64,000 bases of DNA from Clostridiales bacterium (GTDB taxonomy: Bacteria; Bacillota; Clostridia; Saccharofermentanales; Saccharofermentanaceae): NCBI GenBank assembly GCA_017513085.1, contig JAFWDK010000015.1, forward strand, positions 32,001 through 96,000, written 5' to 3'. Below are positions 5,991 through 51,022 of this stretch, in pieces. Numbering within the stretch: the stretch's first letter is position 1; the number at the start of each line of letters is the position of its first letter. The position numbers were made by a program, and so were the translations under genes. The notes under the pieces are model-generated. The model was not told where the DNA came from and did no database searches. It saw only the letters and a list, made by a program, of their open reading frames with translations.

Positions 5991-6357
5991 TTGCCGGACA
6001 GTCAGTATATTTACGATGATTCTCCATTTCCACTGACGCGAAGTCAGTGGAAATTGGCATAACACCAAAAAACACTGATTCGGAGTAGCGGCTGTCAGTG
6101 CTTTTCGCGAAATCATAGAAAAAAACTGACAGGTAATCAGTGGAAATTACAAAAATCATGAAATACACTGACAAGTGGTCAGTATAAAAATCGAAAACAA
6201 AGAAAAACACTGATTCAATTGCCGGACAGTCAGTATATTTACGATGATTCTCCATTTCCACTGACGCGAAGTCAGTGGAAATTGGCATAACACCCAAAAA
6301 CACTGATTCGAAATCGCGGCTGTCAGTGCTTTTCGCGGAATCATAGAAAAACACTGA
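5991..6357. repeat. Array of eight 35-bp inverted-arm sites TCAGT-N25-ACTGA, including a ~140-bp direct duplication
   Basis: TCAGT at 6002, 6044, 6095, 6137, 6179, 6230, 6272 and 6323, each with ACTGA starting exactly 30 nt later; 5991-6129 is duplicated at 6219-6357. Confidence 0.9.
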
Positions 6358-46394: not shown

Positions 46395-46521
46395 CGCCGA
46401 TCATTCTCCTTTTCCTCGATGAACAATATTCGAGGGGATTATATCAGCAAACCAAATCGCGATTTGGTAAAAAACTTACTTTTCTGTTGAATAAACTACT
46501 TGAGAATGCCCATAGGTATGA

Positions 46522-47145
46522 TTACTTTGGTCCTGTCGGTTTTCCATGACCATAGTAGATCTTTCTTGGACCTAGGCTTCTTATCTTCTCTGCGCTCGCC
46601 TTAAGGGCATCCTTATCACAATACAAGTGTCCGGTGGCCGGTGTGATCCAGTTATCCAGCGCATCGCCTACGATCAGGTCCGTTCCTTCCACATCCACGC
46701 CTATCGAGCCTTTCGTATGACCGGGAAATTCCAGTATCTTCGCGCTGATCCCATATTCGGACAGATCGTCTCCCTCTTTGATATGGATCACATTTTCAGG
46801 TCTTTTCACAACGGTATTGCGCAGAACTTTCAGTGACATTCCCAATACGACTTTCCCGACGATTCCGTAGGATTTCATCGGCTGATTATCGAAGCTCTCG
46901 AAAAGATTCTCGTCTGCTGCATGGTAAGCAACCGGTACCCCAAAGTGTTCTGAAAGTTTCGCCGCATTTTCTGCATGATCGAAATGCACATGTGTCAGTA
47001 CGATAAGGCGCATGTTATACTTGCTGCATTCTTCCAGCACTTTTTCATAAGACTCCCCGCTGGCCGTATCCACGAGGATCGCCTCTTTCCCTTCTGATAC
47101 GATGTAGCAGTTATCCGTCTTACCTTTGATCCATTCTATCTTCAT
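46522..47145 (-). CDS. Metallo-beta-lactamase-fold hydrolase
   Basis: LVDT, THVHFDH, PGHTKGS, VGD, GHG. Confidence 0.9.
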   Translation of the reverse strand: MKIEWIKGKTDNCYIVSEGKEAILVDTASGESYEKVLEECSKYNMRLIVLTHVHFDHAENAAKLSEHFGVPVAYHAADENLFESFDNQPMKSYGIVGKVVLGMSLKVLRNTVVKRPENVIHIKEGDDLSEYGISAKILEFPGHTKGSIGVDVEGTDLIVGDALDNWITPATGHLYCDKDALKASAEKIRSLGPRKIYYGHGKPTGPK

Positions 47146-47184
47146 CCTGTTCCTTATCCTTCCACTTCAGCAATCAGTTCTCAC

Positions 47185-47212
47185 AAAAGAGAGCCGGTTT
47201 CCCGACTCTCTT
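47185..47212 (-). terminator. Intrinsic terminator
   Basis: AAGAGAGTCGG-GAAA-CCGGCTCTC then TTTT on the minus strand. Confidence 0.75.
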
Positions 47213-47241
47213 CTATGAACTTTCGTATCTTATTATACTGC

Positions 47242-47976
47242 TTATTCTGCCTGATCGCAGTAGATCCGGATCGCGTTGTCCAAGAAAACCGCTGTGCCTT
47301 CTCCGCCCCAGGAATCGATGTTCTCGGTGAATTCACCGCCGCCGGAATACATCTTTCCAAGGCCGCGCAGGATCTTGGGGGTGCAGGTGTACATGTTTTC
47401 CGTGATGAATCCCTGGAGCTGCTTCACCATGTCCTGTGCTTCCGGTGATGCCGGATCTTTCTCCTTCATCTTTCCGGCTTCCTTAAACAGCAGCATGAAG
47501 CGGTCCATCATGAGGTTCTCCTCTTCCTTCGTCCGGCTGCTAGACTTCTCCTGCATCTCCTGAAACTCCGGTGTGCTCCCGTACTGTTCTTTTGCCTTGC
47601 GGGAATACTCATCTAACTTACTTCTATCAAAGGCTTTAAAATCCATATGCCTCACTCCTACTTTCTTTATTCCAAGCGCGAAATTCATCAGGTTCTCGAT
47701 GTGCTCCTTCTTAAGACGCAAAAGCTCGATCTGCTGATCCAGAGCTTTGTTTCTGTCAAAGTCCGGGCTGCTCAAGATTGCCTGAATATCCTTAAGCGGA
47801 AACTCCAATTCACGAAACAGTAAAATGTGCTGAAGGCGTTCCAGATCCGTATCGTCATACAGTCTGTATCCCGCATCGGTGTATCCCGTCGGATGCAAAA
47901 GACCGATCTTGTCGTAATACTGCAGGGTGCGTATACTCACCCCGGCGAGCTTACTTACTTCATGTACCGTCATCAT
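47242..47976 (-). CDS. MerR-family regulator with TipAS-like antibiotic-binding domain
   Basis: VSIRTLQYYDKIGLL, GYRLY; C-terminal DPASPEAQ...LGKMY...FTENID...GTAVF. Confidence 0.9.
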   Translation of the reverse strand: MMTVHEVSKLAGVSIRTLQYYDKIGLLHPTGYTDAGYRLYDDTDLERLQHILLFRELEFPLKDIQAILSSPDFDRNKALDQQIELLRLKKEHIENLMNFALGIKKVGVRHMDFKAFDRSKLDEYSRKAKEQYGSTPEFQEMQEKSSSRTKEEENLMMDRFMLLFKEAGKMKEKDPASPEAQDMVKQLQGFITENMYTCTPKILRGLGKMYSGGGEFTENIDSWGGEGTAVFLDNAIRIYCDQAE

Positions 47977-48007
47977 GTTTTCGTCCTCCACTTAGCTTGG
48001 TAGCTTT

Positions 48008-48038
48008 ACTATAAACTATGACGTAACGTCAGAGTCAA
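48008..48038 (-). promoter_or_regulatory. MerR-type promoter (19-bp spacer with dyad)
   Basis: TTGACT-19 bp-TATAGT with TGACGTTACGTCA palindrome. Confidence 0.85.
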
Positions 48039-48095
48039 GTGCTTTTTCCAAAGATGTATCATAAAGGGGTATTGTTCGAAAAAAGAATGATCTGA

Positions 48096-48168
48096 TTCCC
48101 GTTTTTTCCTCAAAAAGTATGAACCGATTTTTCTTGAACGACACTCCAAAAATGGTGCATCGTTCAAC
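48096..48168. repeat. 73-bp direct repeat, copy 1
   Basis: Identical to 48601-48673; contains the 34-bp dyad TTGAACGA-N18-TCGTTCAA. Confidence 0.9.
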
Positions 48169-48173
48169 GATCT

Positions 48174-48271
48174 GGGGGGTGGGGCGGGGAGCGTAAGGGG
48201 ACATGGGTGCTGGAGTGCAGGGGGGGCTGGAGTCAGGGGCCCAGGGGCGCAGGAGTCAAGGGTGCAGGGGC
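48174..48271 (+). other. G-rich tract, predicted G-quadruplex
   Basis: G6-T-G4-C-G4-N7-G4, followed by short GCAGGGG/GCTGGAGT-type units. Confidence 0.7.
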
Positions 48272-48272
48272 A

Positions 48273-48628
48273 AATTCATACTTTTTGCAAGTTTCGAGCT
48301 CAAAAGAATGTACTTGTCTCAGTCCTGAATTAACGAATTCATACTTTTTTCCGTTTTTTTCTCAAAAGGTAAGAAATCCCTTTGACGGAGCGCAGGTGAA
48401 TTCATACTTTTTCCCGTTTTTTCCTCAAAAGGTATGAAATCCCCTTTGACGGAGCGCAGGTGAATTCATACTTTTTCCCGTTTTTTCCTCAAAAGGTATG
48501 AAATCCCTTTGACGGAGCGCAGGTGAATTCATACTTTTTCCCGTTTTTTCCTCAAAAAGTATGAATTCTCATAGACGGAGCACAAGTGAATTCATACTTT
48601 TTCCCGTTTTTTCCTCAAAAAGTATGAA
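48273..48628. repeat. Six-unit 63-bp tandem array of 38-bp inverted-arm sites
   Basis: AATTCATAC at 48273, 48336, 48399, 48463, 48526 and 48589; consensus TTCATAC-N24-GTATGAA. Confidence 0.92.
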
Positions 48629-48673
48629 CCGATTTTTCTTGAACGACACTCCAAAAATGGTGCATCGTTCAAC
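48601..48673. repeat. 73-bp direct repeat, copy 2
   Basis: Identical to 48096-48168, offset 505 bp. Confidence 0.9.
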
Positions 48674-48810
48674 TGAAGTGACCCTAAAGCTGGCAACAAC
48701 TTTGGATACACTTCGTTTTGAGGCAGCCTTTTCATGTTTCTTTATCCCCTTCCTTTCAATAGAAAATGTGGTGCTATAATGAAGACAGAAATCCGAAGGA
48801 GGCTCCATAT

Positions 48811-49710
48811 ATGCTTCGACAACCGTTGGGAGAACTCCCTGTCAGCATTCGCAGATATGAAACTACGGTAACCGGAAAAACAACGCAAAGAAGAGTGCCT
48901 CTTACTATTTTCTATCCATCTATCAGATGGGAAACCGAGTATCCGTATCAGGATCCGGTCTGGCAGAAATCGCCGGATCATCCGGACAACGGAGTACACA
49001 CTTTTTGCGGAAAAGAAGAAGCGTTAGCCGAAGTCAAGAATAAGTACCCTGTGATCCTTTTCAGCCATGGTCTCTGCGGGTATGAAATGGAGAGTACCGT
49101 CCTTTGCGCAGATCTGGCTTCTTACAGATATGTCGTAGTCAGTATCGGTCATCCTCGCGGCTCAAAAGTCGTGACGTATATCGATGGAAGTATATATGAA
49201 GATCCCGAGCCCTTCAGTAAGATCCGCCATAAACTGGATACGGTCGAACCCCTCTGGTATGAGGACTTCCTGTCCGCCAGGGACATGCTTTCAAACCTGA
49301 ATCAGACAGATCCGTTCTGGCGCGATCACCTGGATGTCTCTGACATAGGTATCGTAGGAAACTCTTTCGGCGGATGCTGCGGCATCGCGACGGCTCTAAA
49401 AAACAACACATTCCGATATGCCGTAAATCTGGACGGAGGACTCTTTGTTCCCCTCACCTATTCATTTACGGACACCCCGATCCTGATCCTACGCAGCATT
49501 CTGAATTTCAAATCAAATGCCGGACTTTCACGTCACGGCTGTACGAATGTGGAAGTAACAAAATACAGAAAACTCGTCCACTACGAATTCAGCGACGGCA
49601 TTTATCTGGGTCCGAGAGGAAAGAAGAACCGCGACTGGGCAGATCAGATCAGTCGTGAACGTTCAGAGCGGATCCTGGCATTCCTTACTAAATCCCGATC
49701 AGATCTCTGA
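48811..49710 (+). CDS. Alpha/beta hydrolase (PAF-acetylhydrolase-like)
   Basis: YPVILFSHGL, GNSFGG nucleophile elbow, VNLDG, HYEFSD; SD AAGGAGG; TGcTATAAT upstream. Confidence 0.85.
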   Translation: MLRQPLGELPVSIRRYETTVTGKTTQRRVPLTIFYPSIRWETEYPYQDPVWQKSPDHPDNGVHTFCGKEEALAEVKNKYPVILFSHGLCGYEMESTVLCADLASYRYVVVSIGHPRGSKVVTYIDGSIYEDPEPFSKIRHKLDTVEPLWYEDFLSARDMLSNLNQTDPFWRDHLDVSDIGIVGNSFGGCCGIATALKNNTFRYAVNLDGGLFVPLTYSFTDTPILILRSILNFKSNAGLSRHGCTNVEVTKYRKLVHYEFSDGIYLGPRGKKNRDWADQISRERSERILAFLTKSRSDL

Positions 49711-49837
49711 ATCCCTCACTTACACATGTGTCGGCTTCTATACTTTTGGGCATTTAAAAAACTCGTTTCCCATTCACGGGCAGTTTACAAAATGCTGCTA
49801 TTCTAATATCAAGAGATTTCTGTCATGGAGGTACCGG

Positions 49838-51022
49838 ATGAATACACGTAACGGATTTCCGATCCTGGGCTTTGGCTGCATGCGCTTTGCCACGAAAGGC
49901 CGTAGTATAGATTTTGAAAAAGCAGAAGAACAGATCCTCCGCGCATTTGATCTGGGGATCACTTATTTTGATACGGCGTATATCTATCCCGGAAGTGAAG
50001 ATACCATAGGAAAAGTACTGGAAAAGCATCATCTTCGTGAGAAGATCACTTTGACGACAAAACTCCCGCAGTATCTTGTCAAAAAGCGCGAAGACCTGGA
50101 TAAGTATCTGGACGAAGAACTTAAGCGTCTGCGCACCACTTACCTCGATTATTATCTGTTCCATCACATGACGGATATCGTGCAGTGGGAATACTTGCTT
50201 TCACTGGGTGTAACAGACTGGATCGAAGAGAAAAAAGCAGAAGGAAAGATTCGTCACGTCGGCTTCTCTTTTCACGGAAATACGGAGATGTATCTGAAAA
50301 TCCTTTCCGCTTATTCGTGGGAATTAAGTCTCGTCCAGTATAACTACATGGATGAAAACTCTCAGGCAGGAAGAGAAGGAATTGCCGAAGCATATAAAAG
50401 AGGTATTCCCGTTTTCATCATGGAACCTCTTCGTGGTGGTAAACTTGTAGATCTTTTGCCTGAAAAAGCGAAGAAAGAAATCGCCGCGGATCCACATGGC
50501 TGGACACCGGCCGAGTGGGCATTCCGATGGCTTTGGAATCAGAAAGAGATCACCTGCGTGCTTTCGGGCATGAATTCGATCCCCATGATTGAAGAAAATA
50601 TACGTATCGCCTCCTCCACGGAAGCCGATTCATGGGGACCGGAAGAGATGGCCATGATCGACAGGATCCGTACCTACATCAACGAAAATACGAAGGTTGG
50701 CTGCACAGGATGCAAGTATTGTCTTCCCTGCCCTCGCGGTGTAGACATTCCGAGTATTTTTTCCTGCTACAATCACATGTATTCCGAGAAAAAATCCTCC
50801 GGACGGAAAGAATACTATCAGACGATCGCCTTACGTCTGGAACCGGCAGACGCGACCCGCTGTGTCGGATGCGGAAAATGTGAGAAACACTGTCCGCAGA
50901 ATATTCCGATTCGCGAGAAACTGAAGGAAGCCAACAAAGCGCTTTCTCCTCTTCCTTACAGAGTCGTTGCCAAGCTCTCGCGGAAAATACTGGTCGCAAA
51001 GAAAAAGAAAAAAACTTCCTGA
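49838..51022 (+). CDS. Aldo/keto reductase with C-terminal 4Fe-4S dicluster
   Basis: LGFGCMRF, YFDTAY, MEPLRGG, CTGCKYCLPCP, CVGCGKCEKHCPQ. Confidence 0.9.
   Translation: MNTRNGFPILGFGCMRFATKGRSIDFEKAEEQILRAFDLGITYFDTAYIYPGSEDTIGKVLEKHHLREKITLTTKLPQYLVKKREDLDKYLDEELKRLRTTYLDYYLFHHMTDIVQWEYLLSLGVTDWIEEKKAEGKIRHVGFSFHGNTEMYLKILSAYSWELSLVQYNYMDENSQAGREGIAEAYKRGIPVFIMEPLRGGKLVDLLPEKAKKEIAADPHGWTPAEWAFRWLWNQKEITCVLSGMNSIPMIEENIRIASSTEADSWGPEEMAMIDRIRTYINENTKVGCTGCKYCLPCPRGVDIPSIFSCYNHMYSEKKSSGRKEYYQTIALRLEPADATRCVGCGKCEKHCPQNIPIREKLKEANKALSPLPYRVVAKLSRKILVAKKKKKTS

Follow-up and report, generated by a model that had tools for sequence, protein, structure and literature searches.

A phased array of bipartite inverted sites in a Clostridiales genome, a candidate gene-less member of an unannotated nuclease-plus-array module

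The window analyzed here is a stretch of 64,000 nucleotides from a Clostridiales bacterium, corresponding to C10:32001-96000 of its genome (designated G000: 3.06 Mb, 47% G+C, 36 contigs). At 48096-48673, between the divergent genes of a MerR/TipAS-family regulator (minus strand) and a hydrolase (plus strand), lies a block whose core is a bipartite inverted site, TTCATAC-N24-GTATGAA, repeated in phase every 63 bp. We hold, with modest confidence, that this block is an orphan, i.e., gene-less, array of a nuclease-plus-array module that has a gene-linked representative on contig C32 of the same genome, and that it offers the C32-type protein a platform for docking on double-stranded DNA.

The array proper comprises six units on the plus strand. 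A repeat search placed their left arms at 48277, 48340, 48403, 48467, 48530 and 48593, i.e., at the steps of 63, 63, 64, 63 and 63 bp that had been given in an earlier note on this DNA, and Tandem Repeats Finder reports a 63-bp period at 48335-48628 (4.7 copies, 94% matches, score 502). Units 2-6 occupy 48335-48628, with 38-bp sites at 48338-48375, 48401-48438, 48465-48502, 48528-48565 and 48591-48628. The 38-bp site, which the earlier note had assigned to every unit, has both arms perfect in units 3-6 only, where it reads TTCATACTTTTT-N14-AAAA(A/G)GTATGAA; in unit 2, the right arm is an imperfect GTAAGAA. Units 3-6 are mutually 87-100% alike. Unit 1 (48272-48334) retains the left arm (TTCATAC, 48275-48281) and the 24-nt spacing that had been claimed for it, and its right arm, GAATGTA (48306-48312), is degenerate. 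With linkers of 25-26 bp in units 2-6, half-sites of alternating orientation stand 31-33 bp apart, giving the period of 63/64 bp. No credible reading frame runs through the block, as had been noted together with the flip of gene orientation from minus to plus: open reading frames (ORFs) across the array reach 79 amino acid residues at most. Coding repeats were considered and ruled out, since the frame is lost at the 64-bp unit and the conserved words are read in different frames in G000 and in G155, an uncultured Lachnospiraceae metagenome-assembled genome (MAG).

Unit 1 is preceded by a G-rich head of about 100 bp (48169-48271, plus strand), made of degenerate 17- to 23-bp repeats with G4-G7 runs. 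Head and units are bracketed by an exact 73-nt direct repeat, 48096-48168 and 48601-48673 (both plus strand, offset 505 bp). The left copy consists of a truncated site, of which only the right half-site is left (GTATGAA, 48117-48123), and a 45-bp tail; the right copy consists of the final 28 bp of site 6 and the tail. Each copy is closed by a second dyad, TTGAACGA-N18-TCGTTCAA, at 48134-48167 and 48639-48672, and in this the earlier description proved exact. Folded as single-stranded DNA, the second dyad reaches -8.4 kcal/mol, and 0 of 200 shuffles fold equally well.

A genome-wide search for copies revealed paralogous arrays on C32 and C15. The strict site pattern gives 11 matches in G000, none with a reversed-pattern control, and none in 141 other genomes of the same family in the Genome Taxonomy Database (GTDB). 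The array at C32:23364-23796 is 89% identical to window 48169-48601 over 432 bp and includes the G-rich head (C32:23364-23469, 88% identity), unit 1 and four further units. It sits between convergent genes. At C15:50458-50811, the arms recur in six units of 63 bp, with the loop in the opposite orientation and a different linker. The 73-bp bracket is missing from both, and so does not characterize the family. A unit-profile search of G000 found further single or paired sites on C12, C14, C24, C33 and C34; single sites elsewhere also adjoin G-rich or C-rich runs. The head precedes the C10 and C32 arrays only, with no copy elsewhere in G000, and is absent from the array that occupies the orthologous locus of genome G013. 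This G013 orthologue of the C32 locus (flank proteins 72-74% identical) has seven diverged units at 63, 64, 64, 64, 64 and 63 bp. Unit 1 of the window array is similar both to the opening unit on C32 and to units of the TACAT type in the G013 array, and the first and last C32 units resemble those of the G013 array. A census of the whole G000 genome gave at least 16 arrays of this kind, five of them gene-linked and the rest orphans; four of the five gene-linked arrays reached the scan threshold, and the fifth, on C24, is known from separate flank inspection. No common partner gene was found beside the orphan sites among the neighbor genes listed.

The half-sites and their spacing recur beyond G000. 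In 196 genomes of the order with a completeness of 90% or more, TTCATMC-N24-GKATGAA has 15 sites in G000 and one site in each of 14 others; a narrower pattern, run on a 400-genome sample of the class, was matched by G000 and one other genome only. In a species-representative collection, multi-site loci occur in just two other genomes, G154 ('Firmicutes bacterium CAG:194') and G155. Most of the 42 pattern matches in that collection are single sites of 34-40 bp from unrelated phyla and were taken as chance, as were three isolated sites of other lengths in a scan of viral contigs. BLAST of the array against plasmid and phage collections gave no match. In G155, several arrays combine the arms of the window array with other loops and linkers and with a period of 84/85 bp, and three metagenome contigs also carry 84/85-bp arrays.

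In G154, a human-gut lineage, the spacing is kept where the intervening DNA is not. Of 13 inward pairs of the form TTCATMC-N(5-35)-GKATGAA, 10 have N = 24 (reversed control, 3), and among 11 outward pairs N is 25 in seven and 24 in one (reversed control, 2). One locus has ten alternating half-sites at steps of 31, 31, 31, 32, 31, 105, 32, 31 and 32 bp, the DNA between them being unrelated. In a seven-strain alignment of that locus, 0 of 70 half-site columns are variable vs 40 of 313 other columns (one-sided Fisher p = 1.9e-4). Thus, the 63-bp period, 7 + 24 + 7 + 25, recurs with unrelated spacers, and tandem duplication cannot explain it.

Within the GTDB family of G000, a two-site search (two CATMC-N24-GKATG cores with a free linker of 16-42 bp) matched 11 of 142 genomes, and its reversed control matched one. 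The control's four matches are all in that single genome, G051, of the same GTDB family, and perhaps reflect another tandem repeat. Among the matches listed (28 more exist), the linkers are 18/19, 29/30 or 39/40 bp, corresponding to periods of 52/53, 63/64 and 73/74 bp. Each positive genome has its own extended palindromic arms around the common core. The consensus of 54 sites is aT-TTCATAC...GTATGAA-a. Overall, the periods observed are 52-55, 62-64, 73-74 and 84-85 bp, i.e., 5, 6, 7 and 8 times ~10.5 bp. Such quantization in helical turns befits proteins that occupy neighboring sites on one face of a duplex, and does not befit single-stranded DNA hairpins or RNA.

What accompanies the arrays is a gene. 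ORFs of ~265 to 273 residues adjoin arrays of the two-site search in G041, G059, G104 and G117, and the gene that ends just before the C32 array (267 residues) is of the same family. G000 has five family genes, one of them split into two frames, and each has a flanking array. The half-site differs among these arrays: CCCGTAA/TTACGGG is listed for C15 and C4 (on C4 the spacing alternates between 31 and 32), GTCAGTG/CACTGAC, spaced 22 and 30, for C21, and TTAGA(T/C)C and GAGCTAA words for C24. The gene in two frames, at G000:C4:16248-17043, is probably a pseudogene; a regular 63-bp array remains downstream of it. The gene family was found in 108 of the 142 genomes at E <= 1e-30, with 1-8 matches each.

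The association was also found when the gene was taken as the starting point. The sample comprised 30 loci, namely the best match of each of 28 other genomes together with G000:C32 and G013:C48, and 900 bp on each side were scanned for an enriched inverted 7-mer. An array was present on exactly one side in 27 of the 30 loci, downstream in 16 and upstream in 11, each with its own 7-mer, and none of the 29 opposite flanks long enough to test was flagged. The three sub-threshold loci are a 93%-identical pair (n = 5) and the diverged G013 array. When 100 segments of 900 bp were drawn at random from G000, the scan flagged three, each of which proved to be an array of the same kind. Tallied over 22 arrays (seven irregular flagged arrays excluded, two sub-threshold arrays included), the modal periods fall at 52-55 bp for 14 arrays, at 62-63 bp for seven and at 74 bp for one, with none at 56-61 or 64-72 bp; 18 of the 22 lie within 1.5 bp of a multiple of 10.5 bp. 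The module on G000:C15 is absent at the same site of G013, where the flanks are ~300 bp apart vs 2,437 bp in G000. The G000 segment (C15:18432-22214, L165) also contains GC-rich tandem repeats of ~100 bp, and its G013 counterpart (C33, L171) contains different small palindromic repeats; intergenic gaps such as this one appear to be hot spots at which repeat elements accumulate.

The ~267-residue protein falls in no Pfam or NCBIfam family. Over its last ~120 residues it aligns with the C-terminal end of the candidate-defense models PDC-S68 of PADLOC (E 5e-26 to 1e-27); a weak match was also obtained to a PHROG named for a phage 'Holliday junction resolvase'. When 5.8 billion proteins were searched, 1,553 clusters were found at E <= 1e-5, nearly all of 257-288 residues; the sole names among these clusters are 'hypothetical protein', from Lachnospiraceae MAGs and Butyrivibrio sp. 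MC2013, and in the ESM Atlas only unnamed clusters were found. Over 50 sequences, 15 columns are invariant, including K158, E160, D191, E206 and H207 (VRSKSE...PDF...EHxG). The AlphaFold (AF2) model, with a predicted local distance difference test score (pLDDT) of 94.5 and a predicted template modeling score (pTM) of 0.71, has a long helical hairpin (residues 3-28 and 63-93) ending in a tip of three strands (33-57), and then an alpha/beta core. VIA-align matches the core to Bax1 nuclease (Z 8.3, root-mean-square deviation (rmsd) 3.3, 100 aligned), the catalytic domain of I-Bth0305I (Z 8.0, rmsd 3.4, 93 aligned) and TnsA (Z 7.7, rmsd 3.7, 115 aligned), with Z scores in the range that the tool calls common. 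Foldseek against the PDB returned weak rows only (best E 3e-3), and the N-terminal hairpin resembles generic coiled coils only. Motif, PADLOC match and modeled fold together mark the C-terminal domain as a predicted nuclease of the PD-(D/E)xK fold. The N-terminal half is the more variable part of the protein, at 2.0-2.5 bits per column vs 1.41 bits for the nuclease domain (higher meaning more variable).

Modeled as a pair, the protein received a complex score of 0.71 vs 0.00 for the best of three controls; runs agreed on at least 94% of contacts, with a partner pLDDT of at least 88. A score of 0.71 was reached by 20 of 30 proteins solved as same-chain pairs and by one of 23 single chains (rough counts, own alignment used). 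A homodimer is thereby supported at the level of modeling. The modeled interface takes in residues 3-22, 66-120 and 203-261 and leaves the tip mostly free.

By the module we mean a ~267-residue PD-(D/E)xK gene plus a one-sided row of inverted half-sites peculiar to that gene copy, with whole helical turns between neighboring sites; such modules are common in the Clostridia family of G000. The window array has the phased inverted half-sites; the family gene is absent from the window, and the half-site and the 89% identity tie the array to C32. It is assigned to the C32 module because it has half-sites, head and the odd unit 1 in common with the array there. Of the guesses that the earlier note had offered, that of a non-autonomous element fits, as the window copy is without the gene that accompanies the same array type on C32, and that of a nucleoprotein platform is favored by the conservation of half-sites and spacing, the helical periods and the adjacent cognate gene. 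The protein encoded beside an array is its likely binder, and the binding is probably cooperative. C32 looks like the old gene-linked site and C10 like a later copy, since the end units of the C32 array resemble those of the diverged G013 orthologue.

The following model is suggested. Dimers of the C32-type protein would dock, in trans, on each 38-bp site and would contact their neighbors side by side along one face of the helix; they may nick or cut the DNA, or simply coat it. We conjecture that the half-sites are read by the free N-terminal tips, or else that a higher oligomer is needed. Arrays would expand, contract and homogenize by recombination between units and would be copied to new intergenic sites. 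The 73-bp direct repeat would be the scar of a recombination that placed or enlarged the array next to a pre-existing tail hairpin. The excision of a 505-bp circle by recombination between the two 73-bp copies, which had been proposed, is a generic possibility; no in-register joint was seen in Logan contigs, which cannot exclude one. As to function, a selfish nuclease-plus-repeat element with orphan arrays as its non-autonomous derivatives is favored, and a store or sensor platform, sequestering or sensing for a defense-type nuclease, is the runner-up. A broader proposal is that these loci represent an undescribed class of DNA element, in which hypervariable, sequence-specific PD-(D/E)xK dimers each have a phased landing pad and multiply as gene-linked and orphan arrays; this we put forward tentatively, with our doubts outweighing our belief.

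Several observations weigh against the docking-platform interpretation. The modeled interface includes the nuclease domains (203-261) and so brings the catalytic cores together, an arrangement in which the reading of half-sites 31 bp apart is hard to explain. The half-site words differ between proteins that are 50-68% identical, and only the 93%-identical pair has a common word; specificity would have to evolve very fast, or else the arrays would be made, and not read, by the protein. Four of the 22 modal periods (54, 54, 54 and 55 bp) are at least 1.5 bp off any multiple of 10.5 bp, several of the 27 flagged arrays are short or irregular (n = 5-6), and the side of the array, upstream or downstream of the gene, varies. 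Genome G002 has at least five copies of the gene (nine at a looser threshold) and no CATMC-type sites, as expected if its copies, of which one was examined, use other half-sites. The arms of the tandem arrays are perfect palindromes of 12-15 bp, whose lineage-specific positions stay complementary, and this also fits a hairpin or cruciform substrate. Finally, the leading AA/TT period of the window array is 9 bp (power 9.6), followed by 10.5 bp (4.3); the statement that T/A tracts recur about every 10 bp is only roughly right, and as a test of curvature this periodicity was mixed.

Among the alternatives, the one that fares best, though we consider it unlikely, is an array of operators, i.e., ordinary cis-regulatory sites for the adjacent genes: MerR and hydrolase genes in the window, the nuclease gene in the modules. 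Phased operator arrays are known from autoregulated par and rep loci, a precedent for this reading. The position of the window array between divergent genes speaks for it, as do the 11 of 27 gene-linked arrays that lie upstream of the nuclease gene. However, the other 16 arrays lie downstream of its stop codon, the C32 array is flanked by convergent genes, and the G154 sites occur in convergent, co-directional and divergent gaps beside unrelated genes. The MerR gene and its own promoter, moreover, are conserved in seven relatives that have no array. The gene (47242-47976, minus strand) has 91-95% DNA identity in seven other genomes of the genus, and in these the similarity stops at ~48048-48088, just before the array, which is found there in 0 of 7. 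Its putative promoter, recognized by eye outside the array at 48005-48050 (minus strand), consists of TTGACT, a 19-bp spacer with a GACGTTACGTC dyad, and TATAGT, a MerR-type arrangement. It is kept in the relatives, and synteny to its right breaks in every relative examined. The PAF-AH_p_II-like (PAF-acetylhydrolase-like) alpha/beta-hydrolase gene (48811-49710, plus strand) does not adjoin the MerR gene in the relatives examined. A promoter and terminator scan found no site within the array; the scan admits only 16- to 18-bp spacers, and so could not list the MerR-type promoter.

More improbable is a reading as repetitive extragenic palindromic (REP) sequences or bacterial interspersed mosaic elements (BIMEs), in which the 38-bp palindromes act as single-stranded hairpins that are cut and amplified by a Y1 transposase of the RAYT/IS200-like kind, the block being a BIME-2-like cluster. 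The sites are indeed dispersed, intergenic and palindromic, tandem clusters have conserved linkers, the architecture varies between strains and the distribution is patchy. The window hairpins fold as single-stranded DNA at -5.4 to -8.0 kcal/mol, and G000, G013 and G015 are positive for both Y1 and the two-site lattice. Yet 6 of 11 lattice-positive genomes have Y1_Tnp (as fragments only in two of them), vs 29 of 131 lattice-negative ones; it is missing from the genome with the most matches, G076 (28 matches, 97% complete), and from G154 and G155. The ends of the IS605 copy in G000 are without such hairpins, and the consensus of 54 sites contains no GTAG-like foot. At some G154 sites, stems of 7-8 bp enclose loops of 22-24 nt and fold at -2.1 to -3.3 kcal/mol only; these sites are conserved nonetheless. 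Helical-turn quantization, for its part, is meaningless for single strands.

REP/BIME systems are described as imperfect palindromes of 20-40 nt, dispersed in intergenic DNA, with inverse pairs joined by linkers, amplification of BIME-2, a GTAG foot, and an enzyme gene flanked by repeats (PMC3333891). The proteobacterial REP/BIME-RAYT systems share with the present arrays the intergenic palindromes, tandem amplification, copy-number differences, a cognate enzyme gene and many gene-less copies (PMC3333891). In contrast, the enzyme linked to the arrays here has a predicted PD-(D/E)xK fold and not HUH/Y1, and the GTAG foot is absent. The site here is bipartite, with a fixed 24-bp spacer that is not necessarily self-complementary, and its helical periods point to recognition of the duplex; the gene is multicopy (1-8 per genome), each copy having its own repeat. 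By analogy, then, the nuclease-array module would work most like REP/BIME with RAYT, yet it departs from that system in the defining points of GTAG foot and Y1 association. A match to a REP family, which the earlier note had named together with an assembly artefact as what might undo its own reading, is disfavored.

An element acting at the RNA level, with transcribed hairpins serving as stabilizer, terminator, small RNA or protein sponge, is very improbable. The hairpins are regular, and the G-T pairs of units 2-4 would be G-U pairs in plus-strand RNA; in the C15 array, however, the wobble falls on the opposite loop orientation. At thresholds of up to E = 1, Rfam models matched neither window 46500-50500 nor any of 11 related loci, neither terminator-like site nor promoter was found in the array, and the window copy lies upstream of both flanking genes. 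The frames of the repeats vary by lineage, and the helical-turn quantization and the non-hairpin G154 sites misfit an RNA fold. In an RNA run from a related strain (X15), coverage is confined to part of the MerR gene, with none on the array, which weighs neither for nor against transcription.

The weakest alternative, a neutral minisatellite seeded by a palindrome and grown by tandem duplication, or else an assembly artefact or mis-joined repeat, draws on the likeness of units 3-6, on the exact 73-bp repeat that could mark a recent duplication and on the poor handling of such repeats by short-read assembly, and is hardly credible given junctions reproduced at single-copy depth in contigs from two studies, the same geometry in other lineages without sequence homology, and half-sites that evolve more slowly than their surroundings.

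The assembly support is as follows. The segment 48139-48302, which spans tail, G-rich head and unit 1, is reproduced with 0 differences and at flank-like depth in Logan contigs of two runs from two studies, which speaks against an artefact; one of the two runs may be the source sample, and 31-mer contigs cannot fix the number of identical inner units. Joints of 48083 to 48133 and of 48396 to 48674 in run X7, on single contigs with short sides, are a lead only for an architecture without the 73-bp duplication. The tail dyad constitutes a separate family of small repeats, with just two copies in G000, both at the window array; copies of 36-42 nt with 85-95% identity are intergenic in seven other genomes of the genus (L072, L075, L079-L085); in G003, two copies bracket a 1.5-kb segment.

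Two further kinds of repeat were noted. A second orphan array, of another type, lies in the window at ~6020-6345, with alternating GTCAGTG and CACTGA(C/T); it matches the type of the gene-linked array G000:C21:24702-24968 and of an array at the start of contig C14. In addition, two CATAC-type sites lie inside a composite of ~480 bp that resembles a miniature inverted-repeat transposable element; its ends are inverted over 11 bp, and it also contains a perfect palindrome rich in GC. The alignment covered at least four G013 copies (L073, L074, L076 and L077), and two copies were found in G000 (C24:203480-203918 and C33:32244-32609); no autonomous version was seen among the G013 copies and the two G000 copies.

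Several other known systems share single features with the arrays. sopC of the F plasmid is described as 12 direct repeats of 43 bp, each with an inverted-repeat motif for dimeric SopB (PMC3177203). The phased tandem repeats with an inverted motif, forming a nucleoprotein platform, are alike (PMC3177203); unlike sopC, the present sites exist as many dispersed chromosomal copies, have half-sites 31 bp apart and not adjacent, and are linked to a nuclease fold. No parA/parB-type genes were seen beside the arrays, the neighbors in the window being MerR/TipAS and hydrolase genes. An iteron or partition locus, one of the earlier suggestions, is likewise disfavored by the absence of rep and par genes among the neighbors scanned.

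The AimR operator of arbitrium phages has the form 6-N25-6 with 31 bp from center to center (PMC6458997). It is similar in its two inverted boxes ~25 bp apart (here 7-N24-7, with N = 24 at all 10 G154 sites) and in the distance of 31 bp between their centers; it differs as a single operator site and not an array, bound by a regulator of the helix-turn-helix and tetratricopeptide-repeat type (RRNPP) (PMC6458997). An AimR/RRNPP reading was rejected: in G000, G013, G154, G155 and G002, the RNPP_C model PF18768 gave 0 of 5 and the AimR model PF22871 gave 0 of 5 above its cut-off.

Among enzymes, I-Bth0305I is a multidomain homodimeric homing endonuclease with a footprint of ~60 bp (PMC3239194). 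It resembles the ~267-residue protein in the PD-(D/E)xK fold of the C-terminal domain (the Z 8.0 match), and differs in that no intron or intein context is found here. The ends of Tn7-like elements contain arrays of protein-binding repeats beside transposition genes (PMC8649781). Likeness extends to the TnsA fold (the Z 7.7 match) and to repeat arrays near enzyme genes (PMC8649781). In contrast to Tn7-like transposons, which have such arrays at both ends and tnsB (DDE) beside tnsA, the present array is one-sided (27/30 loci, 0/29 opposite flanks) and consists of inverted half-sites in alternation. Among the ORFs listed beside the copies, none was seen for a DDE transposase, although no family search aimed at DDE was made.

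CRISPR arrays consist of regularly spaced, partly palindromic repeats of 36 to 38 bp, and BOX, MIRU and NIME elements are modular or tandem intergenic repeats of variable copy number. To our knowledge, none of these four is defined by helical-turn quantization or by a linked PD-(D/E)xK gene. CRISPR was ruled out, as the linkers of units 2-6 are near-identical and resemble the C32 linkers, and so are not unique spacers; no cas genes were seen among the flanking ORFs listed. For the nuclease-array module, PDC-S68 and the motif words, no description was found in the open-access literature searched.

The sequence comparisons point to a nuclease gene family of gut Clostridia, each member with a phased array of its own, that appears to be widespread, unannotated and, as far as searched, new. 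A gene family without a Pfam or NCBIfam model is here tied to arrays whose spacing is governed by the helix. Bacterial genomics has profited from finds of repeats that come with their own enzyme, REP-RAYT and CRISPR-Cas among them. The pairing of protein and DNA site is directly testable, with dozens of natural variants in specificity, and may offer a new scaffold for long-spacer DNA recognition. The module also accounts for a class of intergenic repeats that break assemblies of rumen and gut genomes; in annotation, arrays such as the one in the window should be called orphan arrays of their module, and not CRISPR-like or REP-like. Should the half-sites be read by the N-terminal tips, the family (at least 1,553 clusters) would contain a natural, fast-evolving recognition code for bipartite sites 31 bp apart. 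In that case, the arrays could be chromatin-like filaments that sequester, arm or guide the nuclease, for self-propagation or for defense.

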